NCBI GenBank assembly: GCA_963807525.1
Contig: CAWECI010000025.1
Span: forward strand, 95,056 to 159,055
Source of the DNA: Candidatus Aminicenantes bacterium
GTDB lineage: Bacteria; Acidobacteriota; Aminicenantia; Aminicenantales; Saccharicenantaceae
DNA: 64,000 nucleotides
Direction of reading: 5' to 3'
Below, piece by piece: positions 5,701 to 55,463 of this stretch. The translations under genes were made by a program, and so were the position numbers. How positions within the stretch are numbered: position 1 is the stretch's first letter; each line of letters begins with the position of its first letter. Under the pieces are notes generated by a model that did no database searches, was not told the origin of the DNA, and was given only the letters and a program-made list of their open reading frames with translations.

Positions 5701-6487
5701 CCCTTTCCTCGCTCTTGAGGAGGGCCGTTGCGTCGGTCTCACGCTTCAGGCCGGCGTCGTAGAGGGCCGCGGCCTCCTGCTGGGACCTTTCGAGCACGAC
5801 GAGCTTCCGTTGGTAATGATGCGAGGTCAGCTCGCGGATGCGCTCGCGCAGGCGCCGGTAGCGGTTGGCGGCCTGGGCCTGGCGCTGGAGGGAGTTCTTG
5901 GCCTTCTCGACCTCGATGATGATGTCCTCGAGGCGGATGAGATTCTGTTCGGTGCTGTCGAGCTTCGATTGGGCCTGGCGCTTCTTGTCCTTGTAGTAGG
6001 CCGTGCCCGCGGCTTCCTCGATGAACACCCGCTTCTCGTTCGGCTTGGAGGTGACGAAATTGCCGATCGAGCCCTGCTCGATGACGAAATAATCGGAGGC
6101 CCCGATGGCGTGCTTCCAGAGCTCGTCCTGGATGTCCTTGAGACGGACGGTCTTGCCGTTCATCCGGTATTCGTTTTCGCCGGAGCGGAAGGCCCGGTGG
6201 GAGATGGTCATCTCTTCATCGTCGCCGGCCAGGCTCAGGACGGAGTCGGCCATGGACAGGGCCGGGCGCTTGGCGTTGCCCGAGAAGATGACCTCCTCGG
6301 TCCGATCGCCGCGGACGACCTTCTGGCGGCGGCCGCCGAGAGACCAAAGCATGGCATCGACGAGATTGGACTTGCCCGTGCCGTTGGGGCCGACGATGGC
6401 CGTGATGCCGGGGTGGAAGACGATCTTGGTGCGCTCGGCGAAGGATTTGAATCCCTGAAGCTCGAGCTTCTTGATGATCATGCTCAT
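2780..6487 (-). CDS. smc: Chromosome segregation protein SMC
   Basis: Walker A GPNGTGKSN, Q-loop IEQG, two coiled coils with central hinge, LSGGEKS signature, Walker B/D-loop LDEVDAALD, IIITHN. Confidence 0.96.
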   Translation of the reverse strand: MSMIIKKLELQGFKSFAERTKIVFHPGITAIVGPNGTGKSNLVDAMLWSLGGRRQKVVRGDRTEEVIFSGNAKRPALSMADSVLSLAGDDEEMTISHRAFRSGENEYRMNGKTVRLKDIQDELWKHAIGASDYFVIEQGSIGNFVTSKPNEKRVFIEEAAGTAYYKDKKRQAQSKLDSTEQNLIRLEDIIIEVEKAKNSLQRQAQAANRYRRLRERIRELTSHHYQRKLVVLERSQQEAAALYDAGLKRETDATALLKSEERDAAARRKELWELERALKDGQERVFGLKSRAARIESDIERESKRIEFFEDKKKRAQSDRNELLEDVLYLTREIEELRGRLGGHEGSLAASRSEASIAETDLAAAREARLFAGREVERLRGFYLQTIQALTEIKNENVKTEKELELLARQDEKLAAQFAEQDTSLVESAGRTAALERDIAEVRALREALVSRAEDFKTGLGAAQNAAEEARRRLEALKSKRDETAYHLQALRRIDEKAREDSPADVPGGLGILADLIRTSPENAVLFDAFWREGARSRVIPAEELVGGLPAGLRGNYLLVPAAARPAVPAEVLARPGVIGLLKSLIEPDERLKGRLAGLEDAVIVRDAGEAVKAWIDHPELNYLTPAGDLLLASGLLKLGQKAEGAVALASEIRRLEAEAARLESESLPVAAEIEERSKAVAAVERDLAAVRDELERTERIIQDREREHRYGLGDGEKIRATRSILGREIEVLRGEKQRLEEVLRGTGEGLTRLEAEVLSLRQEIEGQEHDQAGFAAREAALERRFFEAKSGLDVVQERMNGLGDQIRTAEKRKEAATSKIQTLENDILKGDEDQARLREEIAALRESGRTLAEERAAAETGLEATEGRLDDARKALEGLEAAVQKSREAEEEAKNERIRHEIRKAEVERDLVNLDEMCWQELKKTIAELRAEAQTVAPIGAPSPAAEEAEAEDLGEEEIGENGADEAGSDEGQPAAEAAAPAEAGAEAPQAVKTRRTLKKWRPLAEMTDEDVEKELEEAREAIARFKAVNLMAEEEFAEQKKRFEFLTQQRQDLRDSITSTVEAIKKIDEESKDQFAKALEQVNKNFAELFTALFKGGNAEVKLLEPDNPLESGVEIVAQPPGKRVQNLSLLSGGEKSLTSLAFLFALFRYRPSPFCFLDEVDAALDDVNLARFLDLMKTIKHQTQFIIITHNYKTMEVADYIYGTTMAEPNMTRLLSVKLERKGGELPPDLQV

Positions 6488-6575
6488 GATAAAAAGGCGC
6501 TTTCAGTCGAGTCGGCCCGACCCCCTGGGCCGAGCGAGAGGGCTATTGTAAGCGAATCGCCCCCTTTTTGGAATA

Positions 6576-6607
6576 GGGGCTGTCCCCGGAGGGGACTGTC
6601 CCTCTTG
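6576..6607. repeat. REP-like GGGACTGTCCC doublet, copy 2
   Basis: ggggctgtccccggaggggactgtccctcttg in the smc-tonB divergent intergenic region. Confidence 0.8.
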
Positions 6608-6612
6608 TCTTG

Positions 6613-6638
6613 GGAATAAGAGCGCCCCTGAATTGTAT
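6613..6638 (+). promoter_or_regulatory. Putative ECF-type promoter GGAATAA-N14-TGTAT upstream of tonB paralogue
   Basis: Same boxes and spacing occur at 32036-32061 before the ECF sigma gene. Confidence 0.55.
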
Positions 6639-6686
6639 TCAGTATGGAAGCGCAAGCTCCCGAGATTCTCCGGAAAGGAGGCGAAG

Positions 6687-7415
6687 ATGTTCCAAGATGC
6701 CCTGTTCGTCCCGGACCGGAATTGGCGGACGCGGGCGGCGGCCTTGCCGATCGCGACGCTGGCCCACGCCCTGGCCCTGACGCTCCTCGTGATGCTGCCT
6801 CTGTTGCGCCTCGGCGATCTGCCGAAGGTCGACATTTCGGACGTGATCGTCGTGCCGGCGCTTCCGACGACGCCGCTGCCGCCGCCGAAGGCGAGAACCG
6901 GCAACCCCGGGGCGCGCATCAAGGCCCGCCATATGGCGATCTCTTCGGGCGAGTCCTGGCGGCTGGCCCCCGTTGAGATACCTCAAGGGATCGTCGAGGA
7001 AAGCTTCGGGGCGGGCGGCGCGGAAAATGGGATCCCGGGCGGCGTCGATTATGGGGCAGGGGAGGGCGTCACCGCCAACCTGCTGGGGGCCGACCTTTAC
7101 CAGCTGGTCGGCAAGCCCGCCGAACCTCCCGTCCGCGCCGTCGGTGACGTCAAGTCGCCGCGGCTCATCCGGCGCGTCGAGCCCGGGTACCCCGAACTGG
7201 CCCGGCAGGCCCACCAGCAGGGGGTCGTCATCCTCGAAGCCACGACCGACATTTATGGCCGGGTTGTCGCTGTCAGGGTCCTCCGTTCGCTGCCGCTTCT
7301 CGACCAGGCCGCCATCGACGCCGTCCGGCAGTGGGTCTACGAGCCCCTGCTCCTCAACGGCCGTCCGCGGCCGGTGACTTTCACCGTGACCGTCACCTTC
7401 GTCTTGAAGAACTGA
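6687..7415 (+). CDS. Energy transducer TonB family protein
   Basis: SD AAGGAGG 5 nt before ATG 6687; N-terminal TM with His (ATLAH), Pro-rich linker, TonB_C domain YPELARQA..QGVVILEA..RSLPLLDQAAIDAVRQWVYEP. Confidence 0.9.
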   Translation: MFQDALFVPDRNWRTRAAALPIATLAHALALTLLVMLPLLRLGDLPKVDISDVIVVPALPTTPLPPPKARTGNPGARIKARHMAISSGESWRLAPVEIPQGIVEESFGAGGAENGIPGGVDYGAGEGVTANLLGADLYQLVGKPAEPPVRAVGDVKSPRLIRRVEPGYPELARQAHQQGVVILEATTDIYGRVVAVRVLRSLPLLDQAAIDAVRQWVYEPLLLNGRPRPVTFTVTVTFVLKN

Positions 7416-7453
7416 CGCCGGACTGAACGATCGTCTCCTCGGGAGACTGAGGA

Positions 7454-7511
7454 GGGACTGTCCCCGAATGGGGACTGAGGGACTGTCCCCGGAGGGGGAC
7501 TGTCCCTCTTG
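7454..7511. repeat. REP-like GGGACTGTCCC cluster, copy 3 plus partial units
   Basis: gggactgtcccc at 7454-7465, gggactga at 7471, full doublet at 7479-7511. Confidence 0.8.
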
Positions 7512-7565
7512 TCTGAGAGCTGACGAGATCCCTCGGGCGTGCGCCCCCTCCGTGTACCCCCTAAT

Positions 7566-7594
7566 TTGACAGGGAACCCCGTTTCGTTTAACTT
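7566..7594 (+). promoter_or_regulatory. Sigma70 promoter of tRNA-Thr
   Basis: TTGACA-N17-TAACTT ending 15 nt upstream of the tRNA. Confidence 0.7.
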
Positions 7595-7609
7595 ACTTAG
7601 GCCTCCCAA

Positions 7610-7685
7610 GCCAGCGTAGCTCAGTCGGTAGAGCAGCTGATTCGTAATCAGCAGGTCGGAGGTTCGATCCCTCTCGCTGGCTCCA
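7610..7685 (+). tRNA. tRNA-Thr(CGT)
   Basis: 76 nt; acceptor GCCAGCG/CGCTGGC, D-arm GCTC-AGTCGGTA-GAGC, anticodon stem GCTGA/TCAGC with loop TTCGTAA, T-loop GGTTCGATCC, encoded CCA. Confidence 0.97.
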
Positions 7686-7800
7686 TCGATTTTCTCCATT
7701 TAGCGCGCCAAAATCAGGGACTTAGACCCCGAGCCAAAGCAGATCCGGGTAGCAGATCTCCGCTGGACTCGACCCCAATTCCCAAGGCAAGATTGGTATA

Positions 7801-31290: not shown

Positions 31291-32042
31291 GGGCGCCGGC
31301 CGTCGATCCCGGAATTCTCATTCCCGACGACGAGGTCTTCGTCCGCATGACCCTGACCGAGCGCTGGCAGCATGGCCTTCTGATGGCCTCGTTCGTTCTT
31401 CTCATCCTGTCCGGACTCCCCGTTCTCTCGGAAGACATTGAGGTCATCCGGCTCCTCGCCGGCCGGGCCGCGACTTTCACCGTGCGCGGTCTTGTCCACC
31501 GGGCCGCGGCCGTCCTCCTCATCCTCGACCTCGTTTGGCAGCTGGCCTACACGTTCTTCACCCCCCGCGGCAGGCAGAACCTGCGGGACCGGAAATGGCG
31601 CCGCCAGGATACGCGCGACGCCCTGGCCGTTTTCCGTCCCCTGGCGCCGCGGCCCGAGTTCGACCGCTACAGCTTCGCGCAGAAGTTCGAGTACTGGGCG
31701 CTCATCTGGGGCTCGGCCGTCATGATCGTCACGGGCGCCTTGATGTGGCTCCCGAGCCTGTCCCTGTCGCTCTTCCCGCTCTGGCTCCATCAGGTCTTCG
31801 TCGTCGTCCACGGCTACGAAGCCATCCTGGCTTTTGTGGCCATCCTCGTCTGGCACATGTACACGGCCCACCTCGATCCCGAGATCTTCCCGATGAGCGG
31901 GGTCTGGCTCAACGGCCGGATGACCGGCGCCGAGCTGAAGCGCTTTCACCCCCTCGAGCACCGCCGCCTCCTGGAGAGCCGGGACCGACTCCATCGCGAG
32001 CTCTTGGCCCCGAAAAATGCTATGATGAACGGCAAGGAATAA
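31287..32042 (+). CDS. Di-heme cytochrome b subunit (FdnI/HydC-like)
   Basis: Four TMs with His ligands (WQHG, VHRA, VHGY, WHMY); KFEYWALIWG; ATGA overlap. Confidence 0.85.
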   Translation: MRAPAVDPGILIPDDEVFVRMTLTERWQHGLLMASFVLLILSGLPVLSEDIEVIRLLAGRAATFTVRGLVHRAAAVLLILDLVWQLAYTFFTPRGRQNLRDRKWRRQDTRDALAVFRPLAPRPEFDRYSFAQKFEYWALIWGSAVMIVTGALMWLPSLSLSLFPLWLHQVFVVVHGYEAILAFVAILVWHMYTAHLDPEIFPMSGVWLNGRMTGAELKRFHPLEHRRLLESRDRLHRELLAPKNAMMNGKE

Positions 32043-32061
32043 TTCCCGCGACCAGGTGTAT
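32036..32061 (+). promoter_or_regulatory. Putative autoregulatory ECF promoter GGAATAA-N14-TGTAT (leaderless transcript)
   Basis: Ends 5 nt before the ECF ATG; same motif at 6613-6638. Confidence 0.55.
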
Positions 32062-32066
32062 GAGAC

Positions 32067-32657
32067 ATGGGAGCTCCGACGAGAGCGAACGAGCAACCGG
32101 AGGATGCCGTCCTCGTCCGGAAAGCCCAGCAGGGAGACATGGACGCTTACGAGAGCCTGGTCCGGAGATACCAGCAACGGGTCTACGCCCTGTGCCGCCG
32201 TCTGACCGGCGCGCACCAGTCGGCGGACGACCTGGCCCAGGAAACGTTCATCAAAGCTTATTTCGCGCTGGCCCGCTTCGACGCCCAATGGCCGCTCTAT
32301 CCCTGGCTTCGGAGGATCGCCGTCAACACCGGGCTGAACTACCTCAAGACCCGGGGCCGGGAAAGGTCCCTCGAGGACGGCCCGGCCGACGGCCGGCGCC
32401 TGCCGCCGGCCCCGGCGACCGACGATCCCGTGGATCGGCTCGAAAGCGCCGAATTCCAGGCCAGGCTCGACTGGGCGGTGGATTCCCTTCCCGCCGACCA
32501 GAGAAGCGTCTTCGTCCTGAGATTCCATGAGAGCCTGAGCTACGAGGAGATCGGAAGGACCCTCGGACTGCCGCTCGGCACCGTCATGTCGCGGCTGAAC
32601 CGGGCCCGCCAGAAGCTGAAAGAGCTTCTCGCGGATTCCCTCGGAAGGGGAGCTTGA
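32067..32657 (+). CDS. ECF RNA polymerase sigma factor
   Basis: ADDLAQETFIKAY, WLRRIAVN, LSYEEIGRTLGLPLGTVMSRLNRAR. Confidence 0.93.
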   Translation: MGAPTRANEQPEDAVLVRKAQQGDMDAYESLVRRYQQRVYALCRRLTGAHQSADDLAQETFIKAYFALARFDAQWPLYPWLRRIAVNTGLNYLKTRGRERSLEDGPADGRRLPPAPATDDPVDRLESAEFQARLDWAVDSLPADQRSVFVLRFHESLSYEEIGRTLGLPLGTVMSRLNRARQKLKELLADSLGRGA

Positions 32658-32658
32658 G

Positions 32659-33657
32659 ATGAGACACCGCAAACTCCAGGAACTCATCGGGGCCTACGCC
32701 GATGGCGAGCTCCGGCCGGCCGACCGGCCGCGGGTGGAGAAGCATCTCAAGCGCTGCCCGGACTGCCGGCGGGACCTCGAGTTCATCCGCCGTCTTTCGA
32801 AACTCGCCGAGACGCCTCCGACGGGACCTCAGGACAGGGACTACTGGGACTCTTTCCCCGGACGGGTCCGGGCCGGGATCGCCCGCGAGCTGGCCGGAGC
32901 CCCCGCACCCCAAGTTGCGGAGGACAAGATGTTCAAAGACTCATTCTTCCAGCCGGAACCGCGGACACGGCAGAGGGCCCTGCTCCTGCCGCTGTCCGTC
33001 ATCGGCCATGCGGTCGTTCTGATCCTGCTCATCATGCTGCCCCTTCTCAAGATGGGGCAGCTGCCGACGGTCGAGGTCTATAGCGCGTTCCTGGCGCCCC
33101 CGCCGCCGCCCCCGCCGCCTCCGCCGCCGCCGGCCAAGCGGAAAGCGTCGGCGCAAAGCGCCCGGATCAAGCGCGTCCAGGCCGCCGCGCCGACCGAGGC
33201 CGGCCGCCTGGTGGCCCCCGTCGAGATCCCCGAACAGATCGCTGAGGAAACGCTCTCCGACGTCGGCGTCGAGGGCGGTGTCGAAGGCGGCGTCGAGGGC
33301 GGCGTCGTCGGCGGCGTTCTCGGAGGCGTTGTGGGCGGCGTCCTGGGCGGCGTCGTCGGCGAGGTCGAGGCGCCGGTGCGGGCCATCGGCGACGTCAAGC
33401 CGCCGAAGCTCGTGCGGGAGGTGGCGCCGGTCTACCCGGAGATCGCCCGGCAGGCCCGGGTGGAGGGCATCGTCATCGTCGAGGCGACGACGGACGTCTA
33501 CGGCCGGGTGACGAGCGTCAAGGTCCTGCGCTCGATCCCGCTCCTGGACCAGGCGGCCATCGACGCGGTGCGGCAGTGGGTCTACGAGCCCATGATCATC
33601 AACGGCCGGCCCCGGCCGGTCGTCTTCACCGTCACCGTCCGGTTCCAGCTGAAATGA
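32659..33657 (+). CDS. Zinc-finger anti-sigma (zf-HC2) - TonB fusion protein
   Basis: AYADGEL..HLKRCPDC (HxxxCxxC); then MFKDSFF, TM with SVIGH (SxxxH), poly-Pro, GGV repeats, TonB_C. Confidence 0.88.
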   Translation: MRHRKLQELIGAYADGELRPADRPRVEKHLKRCPDCRRDLEFIRRLSKLAETPPTGPQDRDYWDSFPGRVRAGIARELAGAPAPQVAEDKMFKDSFFQPEPRTRQRALLLPLSVIGHAVVLILLIMLPLLKMGQLPTVEVYSAFLAPPPPPPPPPPPPAKRKASAQSARIKRVQAAAPTEAGRLVAPVEIPEQIAEETLSDVGVEGGVEGGVEGGVVGGVLGGVVGGVLGGVVGEVEAPVRAIGDVKPPKLVREVAPVYPEIARQARVEGIVIVEATTDVYGRVTSVKVLRSIPLLDQAAIDAVRQWVYEPMIINGRPRPVVFTVTVRFQLK

Positions 33658-33764
33658 TTACCCCTTCGGGGTGAGGCTCTTCCCCCCTAGCAATCATCAC
33701 CCTGGGCGATTGCCAACCCGCGGGGCCTGTCCGATACTGGCAATCGAGAGTGATGGGAACAGCG

Positions 33765-34616
33765 ATGAAGGTCTCTAAAGCCCGCCTGGTCCTGGCCCTT
33801 CTGGGGATCGGCCTTCTCGTCCCCCTGGCGGCCCGGGCCGAGATCATCGTCCGGCTCGAGGTGACGGCCGAGAACGTGGCGATCCATCTCGAGCCGAGCG
33901 ACCGCAGCCCCGTCGTCGAGGTGCTGCCTCGCGGCGCCGTCGTCAAGCAGTCGAGCGCCATGAAGTTCAGGACCAACTGGTACTACGTCCTCTTCACGTC
34001 GTCCAAGTCCGGCCGGACGCTGACCGGCTATGTCCTGGATACCTGCGTCCGCAAGCTGAACTCGACCCTCAGGGTGGTCGATCTGACGCCCGCCGCGGAG
34101 GTCGCCGACCCGGCCGAGTTCGACCTGACCGCCCGCGTCCTGCCCAGGATCGAATGGGGCAGGAAAGAGGAGATCATCCTGCGGGCCGAGGGCCGGCCCC
34201 TCAGCCGCGACCTGTCGGGCGACATGGTGTTCCTGCGCTATCAGCGGCTGGTCCTGGGCAAGCGCTGCCTGGTGACCTATGTCCTGATCGACCGCAAGCT
34301 GGCCTCGCTGCGCCTGCACCTCCTCGAACGCTACGCGAACAAGGACCGCTACGTCGCGGATTACAACAGGATCCGGGAGTTCCTGAACGGCAAGATCGGC
34401 CAGCCCCGCTATAACAACGTCGTCTGGAAGGACTGGGCCTACGCCGGGAAAGGCGAGAACCTGGGCCAGGCGGTCACGACCGGCAGCCTGAGCCTGTCCT
34501 CGGAATGGGCCGTGGGCGATACCGGGCTCCGGCTGAGCCTGACCGGCGAGAACAGCGAAGTCCGCTTCGACGCCGAGATCAACGCCCTCAAAACACGGAA
34601 TCCGGCCTCTTTCTAA
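33765..34616 (+). CDS. Exported hypothetical protein with N-terminal SH3b-like region
   Basis: Signal peptide ending AARA; VTAENVAIHLEPS..WYYV..GYV. Confidence 0.7.
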   Translation: MKVSKARLVLALLGIGLLVPLAARAEIIVRLEVTAENVAIHLEPSDRSPVVEVLPRGAVVKQSSAMKFRTNWYYVLFTSSKSGRTLTGYVLDTCVRKLNSTLRVVDLTPAAEVADPAEFDLTARVLPRIEWGRKEEIILRAEGRPLSRDLSGDMVFLRYQRLVLGKRCLVTYVLIDRKLASLRLHLLERYANKDRYVADYNRIREFLNGKIGQPRYNNVVWKDWAYAGKGENLGQAVTTGSLSLSSEWAVGDTGLRLSLTGENSEVRFDAEINALKTRNPASF

Positions 34617-46745: not shown

Positions 46746-46807
46746 AAATGGGGACGCTTCTATTTTTCCCTTCAGAGGACTCTGGAAAAATAGAAGCGTC
46801 CCCATTT
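46746..46807. repeat. Perfect 24-bp inverted repeat, 14-nt loop
   Basis: aaatggggacgcttctatttttcc / ggaaaaatagaagcgtccccattt. Confidence 0.88.
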
Positions 46808-46862
46808 CCCGTGATACGCTAAGAATAAAGTTGTAGGAATAGGGGACAGGCTCGAGAAGGCC

Positions 46863-52429: not shown

Positions 52430-54441
52430 TCCTCCTCGACGATGGTCCGGTCATTCCGATAATCGGCCCAAACGGATTCGAACCAGCCTTCCGGGTGGGG
52501 GATCGGCCGCACCGGGACCCATCTCTTCTCGGGCAGTCCCTGGCCGTCCACGCGGATCTCGAGAATGTGCGAGGAGACGAAGTCCGCCGGCGCGGCCAGC
52601 GAAAAGGCCCACGGCGTCCCGAGCATGGAGTGGGGGATCGTCCCGGCCGTGTCGGGAACGAGATAGGACCCCCGGCTCTTCCCGCCGCGCCCGAGGTACT
52701 CGTCGATGGCTTCGAGATAGACGGCCTGGGTCAGGGCCAGGCCCAGAGCCTGGAAGCCTCGGGGCAGGTCGCGGGCCGAGGCGACGCCGATGTCCCGTCG
52801 GGCCCTGAGCCACAGCCCGCGGGCCCGCGTCTTTTCGAGGCGCACCTGGCCCGGGTTCCGGACGACCGCGCCGCAGGCCGACATGCGCCGCCGCACTTCC
52901 GCCAGGCAGGCCTCCGGGGTCAGGGCGTTCGACCGGAGATCGAGCATGGCCTCGGCCTGACGCCACTTCCCGAGGACGAGCGGGGCCGCGGCCCGGGCGA
53001 AGTCGGGTTCCGGCAGGGGCCCCCCGGCGCGCTGGCGCGAGATGAACAGCGCGGCCCGGGCGGCGCCGACCTGCCCGGCGTTGAGCGCCGAGCCGCCCGG
53101 CCTGGTCACGCCGTGGGTGCCGCAGAGCTCGCCGACCGGGAAGAGTCCGCGGAGGCTGGACTCCCACCAGATCGAGCCCCGGAAACCGCCGTTGTTGTGC
53201 TGGGCGCAGACGGCGATCTCCAGCGGCTCGCGGCGAAGGTCGATGCCGTGGGCCCGGTAGAGCTCGACGGCCGGAGGGTTCATCCGGATCAGGCGCGCGA
53301 TCGGCGTCGGCCGCAGCGCGTCCGACTTCTCGAGATAGGCCGCGGCCTCGGGGCCGAGCTGTTTCGGCTCGAACGGCCGGAGGCGGCCGTCGCCGCGGGC
53401 GTCGCTCCGGAAATCGAGGAAGACCCGGCGGCCTTTGACCACGGTCTCGTTATAGACGATGAGGTCGATGAGCGACGATCCGCCGTCGACGGCCCGCCGC
53501 GGGTCGAACGGCCACTGGTAGCCTTTGAGGAAGACGGCCGTGGCCAAGGCGCCCATGTCCGAGAAGTAATCGTTGAGGAACTCCCGCGGGTCCTTGCCCG
53601 CGGCGTCGGTCGAGATATAGCGGGGCACCGCCTGCTGGTAGCTTCCGGAGACGTTCCAGCGGAACTTGGTCGAAGCCAGGCCGAACTGGGATTCGGTCAG
53701 GTTCTGGGCCACGGCGCCCGCCTCGAAGAGCAGCCCGTGCGACCCGGCCTGGCTCTCCGGATAGACCGAATGCTCATACAGGCCCCCCGGGCCGCCCGTG
53801 GCCGCGACGACATTCGCCGCGTTGAAAAGGACGAAACCGCGGTCCGGCCGTCCGAGCTTCCGGGTATCGAGGGCCAGGGCGCCGATCGCCTTCTTGGCCA
53901 CCCCCCGGCCGGATGTGAGCAGGGCGATCACCGCGTGTCCGTCGAAGGTCCGGATCCTCCGCCGCTTGACCTCCCGGGCCAGGGCTTCGAACATGAGCTT
54001 GGAGGTCAGCGGCCCGGCCGAGGTGGCCCGCTGGCGCGGATCGTGGTCGGTCTTGTAGCCGACATAGGCGCCGAAGCGATCGTGAGGGAACGGCACACCC
54101 AGGCCGACGAGGTGGAAAAAGGCCTCGAGCGAACCCTGGGCTTCGACGAGAGCGATATCGCCGTGCATGGAGCCGCCGGCGGCCAGGTCGCAAGCCATGT
54201 CGGCGGCGGAATCGGGCACGTCGCCGGCCAGCGAGAGCTTGTAGTAGGTCTGCTTGTCGGAGCCGGATTCGGCCGAAGCTCCCGTTCCGAGCCGCTCGGT
54301 GACGATGGCGATGTCGGTCTGCCCGAGCTCGTGCAGACGGACGGCCGCGTTGAGCCCGGCCGCCCCGCTGCCGATGATGAGCGTGTTCAGGGAGTGGACC
54401 GGGAAGGCCCGCCCGCCGATCCGGACCTGGCCCGATCTCAT
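52426..54441 (-). CDS. FAD-binding protein, SdhA/FrdA/NadB flavoprotein superfamily
   Basis: IIGSGAAG, SGSDKQTYYK, GYKTDHDP..RATSAGP, ATGGPG, CAQHNNGG, GELCGTHGVTRPGGSALNAGQVG; ATG 54441 overlaps the upstream stop. Confidence 0.88.
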   Translation of the reverse strand: MRSGQVRIGGRAFPVHSLNTLIIGSGAAGLNAAVRLHELGQTDIAIVTERLGTGASAESGSDKQTYYKLSLAGDVPDSAADMACDLAAGGSMHGDIALVEAQGSLEAFFHLVGLGVPFPHDRFGAYVGYKTDHDPRQRATSAGPLTSKLMFEALAREVKRRRIRTFDGHAVIALLTSGRGVAKKAIGALALDTRKLGRPDRGFVLFNAANVVAATGGPGGLYEHSVYPESQAGSHGLLFEAGAVAQNLTESQFGLASTKFRWNVSGSYQQAVPRYISTDAAGKDPREFLNDYFSDMGALATAVFLKGYQWPFDPRRAVDGGSSLIDLIVYNETVVKGRRVFLDFRSDARGDGRLRPFEPKQLGPEAAAYLEKSDALRPTPIARLIRMNPPAVELYRAHGIDLRREPLEIAVCAQHNNGGFRGSIWWESSLRGLFPVGELCGTHGVTRPGGSALNAGQVGAARAALFISRQRAGGPLPEPDFARAAAPLVLGKWRQAEAMLDLRSNALTPEACLAEVRRRMSACGAVVRNPGQVRLEKTRARGLWLRARRDIGVASARDLPRGFQALGLALTQAVYLEAIDEYLGRGGKSRGSYLVPDTAGTIPHSMLGTPWAFSLAAPADFVSSHILEIRVDGQGLPEKRWVPVRPIPHPEGWFESVWADYRNDRTIVEEE

Positions 54442-55463
54442 CGGATCGTTCGTCCTTTCAGCGCCGGGGAGGCCAGGAGCGCCGTCGCGGCCAGGAACAC
54501 GAGGCCGAAGACGGTCCAGGCGTCGGTCGCGAAGAAGAGCACGCCGCAGGTGATGATCCACAGGAACCCGAAATAGATCCACCAGCTTCTCTTGAAAAAG
54601 AGGACGCCGACGAGGATGAGGGTCAGGGCCAGGAAACCGGCCAACGCCGCGCGCAGGTCGGCCGTTTCCTTGATGATCAGGCCGGCGTAGATCGCGGGGA
54701 CGAACAGCCACAGCCCCCGGCGCTTCCTCAGGGTGATCAAGAGGGCCGCCCCCAACGCCGCGGCAGCGAATCCGAAGGTGGCCACGGCCTCGAGCCAGCC
54801 GGGGGGACCGGGCCGCCGTCCTTCCGCCAGCCTCTCGATCCTGACCATCATCGTCCTCTCCATGACGAAATGGGCCGGTTCGAGGAGCCAGAAACTGAAC
54901 AGGCGCCCTATGATCCCGGGCGGCGGACCGCCCCGGCTTCGGGCGTAGAACCGCGTCCCCCCGTCGGCCGTCGGCTCGAGGGCGAACGTGCCCCAGTTCC
55001 TGAGCGTCAGGGACTCGCCGGGCGCCACGAAGGCGACCTTCCAGCCCGGCAAGAACGTTTTTTTTGGCAGGCCGAACAGATAATCCGGCTTGACGCCGCG
55101 GACGAGGTCCTTGGCCTGCCGCGTCTGCCACTCCGGCCGGATCGCATAAGTATTGTGGATGTCCGCGAGGGTCAGGTTCTCGAGCCAGGTGTGGCTGTAG
55201 AAACCGGCCCGGTCCTGGCCGATCTGGATAAGCCATTCCCAAACCTTCGTCGGCGGCGCTTTGACGGTGATGGCCCGGGTGCCGGTGACGACGCCGCCGA
55301 TCCAGGCGTCGTCACCGAGCACGGCCCGCGTCCGCTCCTGCGGCGTCGTTCCCCAATTGGCGAAAAAGGGACGGGCCAGGAGGGAATAGGCCGCGATGGC
55401 GGCCAGGATAATAACGAAGGACGTGCCCGTGATCACGAGCCAGGTCCTCTCGGCCTTGTTCAT
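54438..55463 (-). CDS. Membrane protein with SRPBCC-like domain
   Basis: WGTTPQER, TRAITVKAPPTKVWEWLIQIGQDRAGFYSHTWLEN, HFVMER; C-terminal TMs. Confidence 0.75.
   Translation of the reverse strand: MNKAERTWLVITGTSFVIILAAIAAYSLLARPFFANWGTTPQERTRAVLGDDAWIGGVVTGTRAITVKAPPTKVWEWLIQIGQDRAGFYSHTWLENLTLADIHNTYAIRPEWQTRQAKDLVRGVKPDYLFGLPKKTFLPGWKVAFVAPGESLTLRNWGTFALEPTADGGTRFYARSRGGPPPGIIGRLFSFWLLEPAHFVMERTMMVRIERLAEGRRPGPPGWLEAVATFGFAAAALGAALLITLRKRRGLWLFVPAIYAGLIIKETADLRAALAGFLALTLILVGVLFFKRSWWIYFGFLWIITCGVLFFATDAWTVFGLVFLAATALLASPALKGRTIR

Follow-up and report, generated by a model that had tools for sequence, protein, structure and literature searches.

Why would an operon for an ECF sigma factor and a stand-alone tonB gene some 25 kb away be preceded by the same two short boxes? 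The question arises from a stretch of 64,000 nucleotides (the window, in what follows) in the genome of a Candidatus Aminicenantes bacterium, a 3.86-Mb MAG with 65% G+C. We examined how rare the boxes are, whether relatives keep them, which sigma factor is likely to read them and how the tonB gene came to carry them.

Two identical boxes and the genes behind them

The motif GGAATAA-N14-TGTAT occurs exactly at 6613-6638 and at 32036-32061, both on the forward strand, and these are its sole two matches in the window. A sequence-only reading of this DNA had reported identical boxes and spacing with unrelated spacers, and this was accurate: the boxes are exact matches and the spacers agree at 3 of 14 positions. 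A third common element, TGTAT-N5-ATGG(A/G)AGC, follows both pairs of boxes at equal offset. No exact match was found in 100 dinucleotide-preserving shuffles of the window. In the whole 3.86-Mb genome, 0.040 exact copies are expected from base composition and three were observed (P ~1e-5), while the reversed sequence of the genome, used as a control, contained none. The third copy, at C14:12695-12720 (-), lies 39 nt before a gene for a 216-aa secreted protein, and all three copies point at a gene start. A PWM scan of the genome, which had been proposed as a check, returned three sites scoring 28.9, 27.0 and 22.4, above the control maximum of 20.5 in the reversed genome. Matches scoring 20-22 in the A+T-rich contigs C13, C21, C24 and C35 were set aside as noise, since the control reaches 20.5.

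The first site precedes the gene that we call tonB2:

6613..6619, forward strand: -35 box GGAATAA of the tonB2 promoter, exact
6634..6638, forward strand: -10 box TGTAT of the tonB2 promoter, exact
6644, forward strand: predicted transcription start of tonB2, a purine 6 nt after TGTAT
6646..6661, forward strand: 5' leader hairpin GGAAGC-GCAA-GCTCCC, stem kept in 15 orthologues
6675..6681, forward strand: RBS AAGGAGG of tonB2, invariant and 5-6 nt before the ATG in all orthologues
6687..7415, forward strand: tonB2, a stand-alone diverged TonB paralogue of 242 aa with a TonB_C domain (Pfam 8e-18; also NCBIfam)

The translation of tonB2 contains a proline-rich spacer, PALPTTPLPPPKA, and an ATLAH membrane helix with the conserved His; the Ser of the SxxxH motif is Ala, as in the housekeeping copy. 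The gene is monocistronic and is followed by a tRNA at 7610-7682, which was also the sole match in an Rfam scan of 6450-7800, the leader being unmatched. No exbB-exbD pair is encoded with tonB2 (four ExbB homologues are found elsewhere in the genome, one adjoining the tonB gene of contig C16), and no receptor gene is adjacent. Across the 15 orthologues, the leader hairpin has differing loops and paired insertions, and RNAalifold gave five pairs with no clean compensatory change, so that the structure is no more than suggestive. The palindromes GGGGCTGTCCCC/GGGGACTGTCCC lie at 6569-6603, directly before the -35 box, in the DNA that separates tonB2 from the divergent smc gene; hairpins of this GGGGAC...GTCCCC kind recur there in relatives and elsewhere in the window (e.g. 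46750-46810). One tonB2 orthologue (L087, G020:C6:729300-730409) has an extra G right after the start codon (ATGTTCCAAGGACGCG) and intact promoter boxes; the extra G is either a frameshift, making the gene a pseudogene, or a sequencing error.

The second site precedes the ECF operon:

32018..32026, forward strand: candidate housekeeping-type element TGcTATGAT, a predicted extended -10, upstream of the ECF -35 box
32036..32042, forward strand: -35 box GGAATAA of the ECF operon promoter, exact
32054..32058, forward strand: AGGTG, possible RBS for longer transcripts started upstream; overlaps the -10 box
32057..32061, forward strand: -10 box TGTAT of the ECF operon promoter, exact and conserved in orthologues
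32067..32657, forward strand: ECF sigma factor gene with Sigma70_r2 and r4 domains; its ATG is the predicted transcription start
32659..33657, forward strand: anti-sigma factor, an N-terminal ZAS domain fused to a full TonB (zf-HC2 and TonB_C domains)
33061..33566, forward strand: 506-bp tract identical to the housekeeping tonB of contig C16, the longest exact DNA common to both

The sigma factor has 196 aa and comprises sigma-70 regions 2 and 4 only. The gene of its cognate anti-sigma factor begins 2 nt past the stop of the sigma gene. The sigma factor is matched best by RpoE, AlgU, Mtb SigE and SigW; among NCBIfam models, the superfamily TIGR02937 scored above its cut-off and all equivalog models below theirs. 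In the anti-sigma factor, zf-HC2 matched at 2.5e-11 and H29-x3-C33-x2-C36 could be read from the translation. The domain search found zf-HC2 and TonB_C in this protein and no FecR domain. The ZAS-TonB fusion is conserved across the order. Next comes a gene for a 288-aa secreted protein (33750-34616), which accompanies the fusion at a further 14 loci in the genus and in a single additional family, where identity is about 33%; the protein has no family match, and its gene has a sigma-70-like site of its own, TTGCCA-N17-GATACT, at 33710-33738.

The third genomic copy belongs to the region C14:12008-12720 (-) (locus L001/L067), whose 216-aa product carries a signal peptide. It has no Pfam or NCBIfam match, and a single-sequence AlphaFold model is all-beta at low confidence (pLDDT 54). 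Orthologues with the motif were found in only four other genomes of the genus, where it precedes the gene in 4 of 4 cases. Two candidate sites with one mismatch lie 39-45 nt before genes (C32:32409 and C12:74526). In other families, single-genome candidates precede genes for a DUF885 protein, an M28 peptidase, a probable beta-barrel and a 221-aa secreted protein, the last not detectably related to the 216-aa protein.

Conservation of the motif and the sigma factor that probably reads it

The boxes had been taken for an ECF-type promoter, and conservation upstream of orthologues had been named as the test of that reading; we ran it. Among 41 relatives, the motif lies upstream of the ECF gene at 24 of 26 loci, a set that extends to five other families of the order; the boxes persist and the spacers diverge. 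Among GTDB species representatives, where ECF identity ranges from 46% to 89%, the strict motif was found at 40 of 47 loci, one-base variants at six and none at one. The strict motif was not recognisable upstream of two ECF orthologues (L029/L143 and L034). In the window, the cytochrome b561-like gene that lies upstream uses the TAA of the second GGAATAA (32036-32042) as its stop codon. However, the -35 box is kept at loci where the upstream gene differs (L017, L018), and it is thus no by-product of the cytochrome gene's stop codon. The related records are all Candidatus Aminicenantes or Aminicenantales MAGs. Several public MAG records with the operon (L101, L106, L120-L124, L132 and others) are titled 'uncultured Eubacteriales', 'Clostridiales' or 'Candidatus Desulfaltia', probably taxonomic mislabels.

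All 15 orthologues of tonB2, which share 65-78% protein identity with the query and are confined to the genus, carry GGAAT(A/T)(A/T)-N14-(T/A)GTAT, and its distance to the start codon does not vary. The -35 box reads GGAAT(A/T)(A/T) in 15 of 15 and the -10 box (T/A)GTAT in 14 of 15, with TGTAA in one, and the 14-nt spacer is unconserved. The layout can be summarised as GGAATWW-N14(+/-1)-TGTAT, with 16 bp from GGAAT to TGTAT, box positions carrying 1.3-2.1 bits each and spacer positions 0.03-0.5. The third core base of the -35 element is T in every site (GGAAT, where elements of the GGAAC/GAAAC type have AAC), and the -10 element reads TGTA, not CGTA. A pattern scan of 41 genomes gave 57 matches against 7 in the control, and within the genus nearly all matches precede the ECF operon, tonB2 or the gene of the 216-aa protein.

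Among the 25 sigma-70-family genes of the genome, the motif lies upstream of the ECF gene at 32067 only, with a score of 25.0 against 11.3 at most for the others and a null 95th percentile of 7.3. A second ECF-ZAS operon in the window (at ~46896) was considered as a source of the reader and rejected, its own upstream region lacking the motif (score 10.3). The motif also tracks the ECF gene across genomes: all 20 ECF-bearing genomes of the genus have at least one motif, and the five without the fusion and an orthologous ECF (best matches at or below 42% identity) have no credible one, with the reservation that the compared genomes are MAGs, in which absences of genes and motifs are uncertain. 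Three of these five lack any motif and two have one match each, in one case in A+T-rich DNA and in the other an orphan resembling the remnant of an ECF 5' end. tonB2 is also missing from four of the five, and presence of the fusion against presence of tonB2 gives 17/3/1/4 for the genus (Fisher p = 0.012). The genome G013, 73% complete, has tonB2 with a motif spacer of N12 and no detectable ECF or fusion. At L072 (G011:C22:2125-2570), without detectable ECF or fusion, an orphan motif is followed by ATGGGAGCGCC, which resembles the ECF 5' end, and the contig ends 320 nt on; this motif may be the scar of an operon loss.

These observations allow another explanation, namely that the motif is genuine but serves another sigma factor, or else a DNA-binding regulator, and so would be an input to the ECF operon and not autoregulation. 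The genome encodes about 25 sigma-70-family proteins, overlapping promoter recognition is known among ECF sigmas (PMC5758882), and the pairing of sigma factor and promoter is here drawn from sequence. However, the other sigma genes all lack the motif upstream, and the ECF-less genomes have no credible motif although they retain many other ECFs. Moreover, the layout suits a promoter and not an operator: the two boxes lie at a set distance from each other and from a purine, and the sequence between them is free. We thus regard this explanation as quite improbable. The motif is assigned to the ECF factor at 32067 because it is unique to it among the 25 sigma genes, has no credible copy in the genomes of the genus without it and is conserved at its orthologues; the link between the two is inferred from position, conservation and co-occurrence. 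In our judgement it is very likely that the motif is the promoter of this ECF gene and that tonB2 belongs to its small regulon. The proposal that the tonB gene at 6687 is in the regulon of the ECF at 32067 is in this way very probably right, on grounds of conservation, specificity and co-occurrence.

The motif before tonB2 might still be an unused relic, with tonB2 expressed otherwise or not at all. Promoter and leader of tonB2 were demonstrably inherited through a duplication (see below), and a frameshifted tonB2 is possible in one genome (L087). Against this, the boxes are near-invariant and the spacer is randomised over the 15 orthologues, a pattern of purifying selection that argues for selection on the boxes throughout the genus; no alternative sigma-70-type promoter was found in 6450-7700 around tonB2, and the gene retains a strong RBS and an intact frame. 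A relic therefore seems even less probable than a foreign regulator. Finally, coincidence in A+T-richer intergenic DNA, conceivable for short, A+T-rich boxes (12 specified bases) when PWM scores of 20-22 arise by chance in A+T-rich contigs, has a negligible chance of being right against the expectation and empty controls given above and is already refuted by the comparative data, the motif being conserved at orthologous positions in dozens of genomes.

Predicted start sites and the duplication origin of tonB2

Six nt beyond TGTAT, most of the examined promoters of the ECF, tonB and 216-aa protein genes have a purine (A or G) and then TG, 4 of 23 reading T or AA; transcription most likely starts at this purine. 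Between the end of the second site and the ECF ATG at 32067 there are 5 nt, as had been noted, and the ECF transcript had consequently been called leaderless. Outside this clade, the ECF gene shows the arrangement TGTAT-N5-NNGGGAGC-N5-ATG AGG CC, in which GGGAG acts as the RBS of the ECF gene within a leader of ~17 nt. Comparison of 32062-32081 with the loci L118-L165 showed that the ATG used by the other families, 12 nt downstream, reads ACG in this genus, and that the only in-frame ATG of the genus ECF is the one at the predicted transcription start. Since the downstream ATG is now ACG and the sole ATG sits at the predicted start, an ECF-driven transcript would begin with AUG. A leaderless ECF-driven transcript is thus plausible, for this genus only.

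There are also signs of conventional translation. At the ECF sites in the genus, TGTAT always has AGG before it; the tonB2 sites have GAT or AAT instead. At 16 of 18 genus loci, moreover, the ECF -35 box is preceded at a distance of 8-12 nt by a conserved AAAAGNGTAT(C/G)ATG, often with GCGACA 17 nt further upstream; in this genome, the candidate element (32010-32030) sits within the 3' end of the cytochrome b gene. A second, housekeeping-type promoter probably lies upstream of the ECF gene, its longer transcript using AGGTG as RBS. The leaderless claim can accordingly be kept in a restricted form: it is plausible for the ECF-driven transcript of this genus, other families use the GGGAG RBS with the ATG 12 nt downstream, and the conserved AGGTG together with the likely upstream housekeeping promoter would permit conventional translation in this genus as well.

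The predicted tonB2 transcript likewise opens with AUG (MEAQ...), the start of a 110-aa frame at 6644-6976 (+) that is out of frame with tonB2; this frame is possibly a vestige of the ECF start region. In L089, L090 and L125, the equivalent codon is GUG (read as Met, MEAQ/MEEA) and is in frame, so that it would extend TonB by 9-26 residues.

tonB2 had been described as the twin of the anti-sigma factor without its ZAS domain. Its product is 51% identical to anti-sigma residues 91-332. A closer relative is the housekeeping tonB on contig C16 (~53975-54746), which is directly followed by exbB, has a promoter of the housekeeping type (TTGTCA-N17-TATACT) and shares the 506-bp tract with the fusion, while the membrane-anchor (5') regions of the two are only 52-65% identical. 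In the tree, the fusion pairs with the housekeeping TonB of its own genome, including in a closed genome. Together, the identical tract and the same-genome pairing point to recurrent gene conversion between the two genes. The C-terminal domain of TonB2 is close to that of the fusion and the housekeeping TonB, and its linker and membrane anchor differ. Judging by these comparisons, it is the working TonB, and not tonB2 at 6687, that today is the twin of the outer half of the anti-sigma factor; the description of tonB2 as a twin holds in an evolutionary sense, its promoter and leader being a copy of the 5' end of the operon.

Motif-bearing TonB paralogues adjoin the fusion or lie in its vicinity in at least four further lineages (L076, L089/L168, L090 and L125). 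The motif-bearing tonB directly follows the fusion in G027 and the L125 lineage and lies 4 kb from it in G032/L168; G034 also has one. In the tree, the tonB2 genes of the genus form an old clade, with the G034 copy as its sister (support 99/97), while the tonB copies of G032/L168 group with the fusion of their own genome (100/96), as does the L125 copy (96/90). These well-supported branches force at least three origins of a spare tonB, unless gene conversion has blurred a single one. Promoter and leader of the ECF and tonB genes match at 44 of 63 positions in G032, including AATGAGGCCGAT, which corresponds to the ECF start codon and three further codons. They match at 34 of 59 positions in L125 and at 26 of 52 in the genome studied here, with the pattern ATGGRAGC...TCC.GA. 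This homology within single genomes, which extends beyond the boxes, indicates that the spare tonB genes are operon copies in which the promoter and the first ECF bases survive and the sigma and zinc-finger coding parts are gone. The boxes before tonB2 and the ECF gene are thus identical because tonB2 arose by duplication of the operon.

A putative circuit and its relation to known systems

In the circuit that we infer, GGAAT(A/T)(A/T)-N14-TGTAT would be read by RNA polymerase carrying the ECF sigma of 32067; sigma dependence and start sites are predictions, as is any effect of TonB2 back onto the TonB-type anti-sigma factor. The sigma factor would be kept at the membrane by the anti-sigma factor, in which a zinc-finger domain is joined to a complete TonB. 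Once released, it would transcribe its own operon (positive autoregulation), the monocistronic tonB2 at 6687 and the gene of the 216-aa secreted protein on another contig. In the genus, the start purine of the ECF gene would be the A of the start codon and the ECF-driven transcript leaderless, and a housekeeping-type promoter just upstream would probably provide basal, conventionally translated ECF expression. Genes of the tonB2 type stem from duplicates of the operon that retained the promoter and first ECF bases after the sigma and zinc-finger parts had gone. The TonB2 protein may supply extra TonB capacity; alternatively, it may vie with the anti-sigma factor for TonB boxes or ExbBD.

A bolder idea, which we put forward tentatively and consider unlikely on present evidence, is that the circuit senses demand on the TonB system or damage to it. 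The periplasmic half of the anti-sigma factor, kept identical to the working TonB by gene conversion, would probe the TonB boxes and ExbBD motors that the working TonB uses; the sigma factor would be freed when this half is engaged or lost. It would then turn on the spare TonB, itself an offspring of the operon, and this TonB would compete with the sensor, closing a homeostatic loop. If so, the cell would gauge the load on its outer-membrane energising system without a receptor signalling domain.

In its layout, the promoter resembles the autoregulated promoters of the RpoE/SigW type. ECF promoters have spacers of 14-17 bp, an AA-core -35 and a GTA-type -10 element (PMC5758882); an 'AAC' core is typical of the -35 and not obligatory, and the -10 is group-specific (PMC5758882). 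The sigma-W promoter of B. subtilis, for example, reads TGAAAC-N16-CGTA (PMC5758882). The promoter described here shares the bipartite structure, the AA-core -35, the GTA-type -10 and the short fixed spacer of this type (PMC5758882), and also an A/T-rich stretch just after the -35 and a position directly upstream of a sigma/anti-sigma operon. The regulon is likewise small, its promoters are near consensus, and the sigma factor matches RpoE, AlgU, SigE and SigW. It differs in its -35, GGAAT(A/T)(A/T), with T where AAC is usual, in its -10, TGTAT, in the start codon located at the predicted transcription start in the genus, and in an anti-sigma factor that is a zinc finger-TonB fusion.

Two systems that couple ECF signalling to TonB offer partial parallels. 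In the Has system of Serratia marcescens, the TonB paralogue HasB is encoded in an operon under a sigma/anti-sigma cascade (PMC3602595, PMC9249621), also without linked exbBD (PMC3602595), which shows that such linkage is not obligatory for a TonB protein. tonB2 is similar in being a dedicated TonB paralogue without its own exbBD and under putative ECF control. In contrast, hasB is last in an operon with receptor and hemophore and tonB2 is monocistronic; the anti-sigma factor HasS is FecR-like, whereas the one described here is itself a TonB without a FecR domain. In addition, we found no receptor gene among the regulon members in this genome, and the spare tonB descends from the anti-sigma operon. 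tonB2 thus resembles Has in one respect only and is not a member of the Has type. FecI-FecR-FecA (PMC9249621) similarly ties ECF signalling to the TonB system and the cell envelope. However, fecIR is not autoregulated, whereas the present operon bears the motif of its own sigma, a FecR domain is lacking here, and the output is a TonB and small exported proteins, not a transporter.

The zinc-binding anti-sigma factors of the RsrA, ChrR and RslA type share the N-terminal HxxxCxxC domain encoded right after the ECF gene, consistent with a weak NCBIfam match of the RsrA type. Unlike in these, the rest of the protein is a membrane-anchored TonB, whose periplasmic half is identical to the housekeeping TonB. 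Our literature searches brought up neither a TonB-domain anti-sigma factor nor an account of this system in Aminicenantes.

The promoter itself is thus of the ordinary ECF type with a sequence of its own; what is unusual is what it connects and how its second copy arose. A very unusual zinc finger-TonB anti-sigma factor is tied to an output that is also a TonB. The compact set of sigma factor, anti-sigma factor and promoter is probably orthogonal and could be tested in E. coli. For the Aminicenantes, to our knowledge a lineage without cultured members, the results give a testable assignment of sigma factor, promoter and regulon. Moreover, a spare tonB has been made repeatedly by operon duplication and deletion, with the promoter kept each time, which suggests that selection has favoured sigma-controlled TonB capacity.
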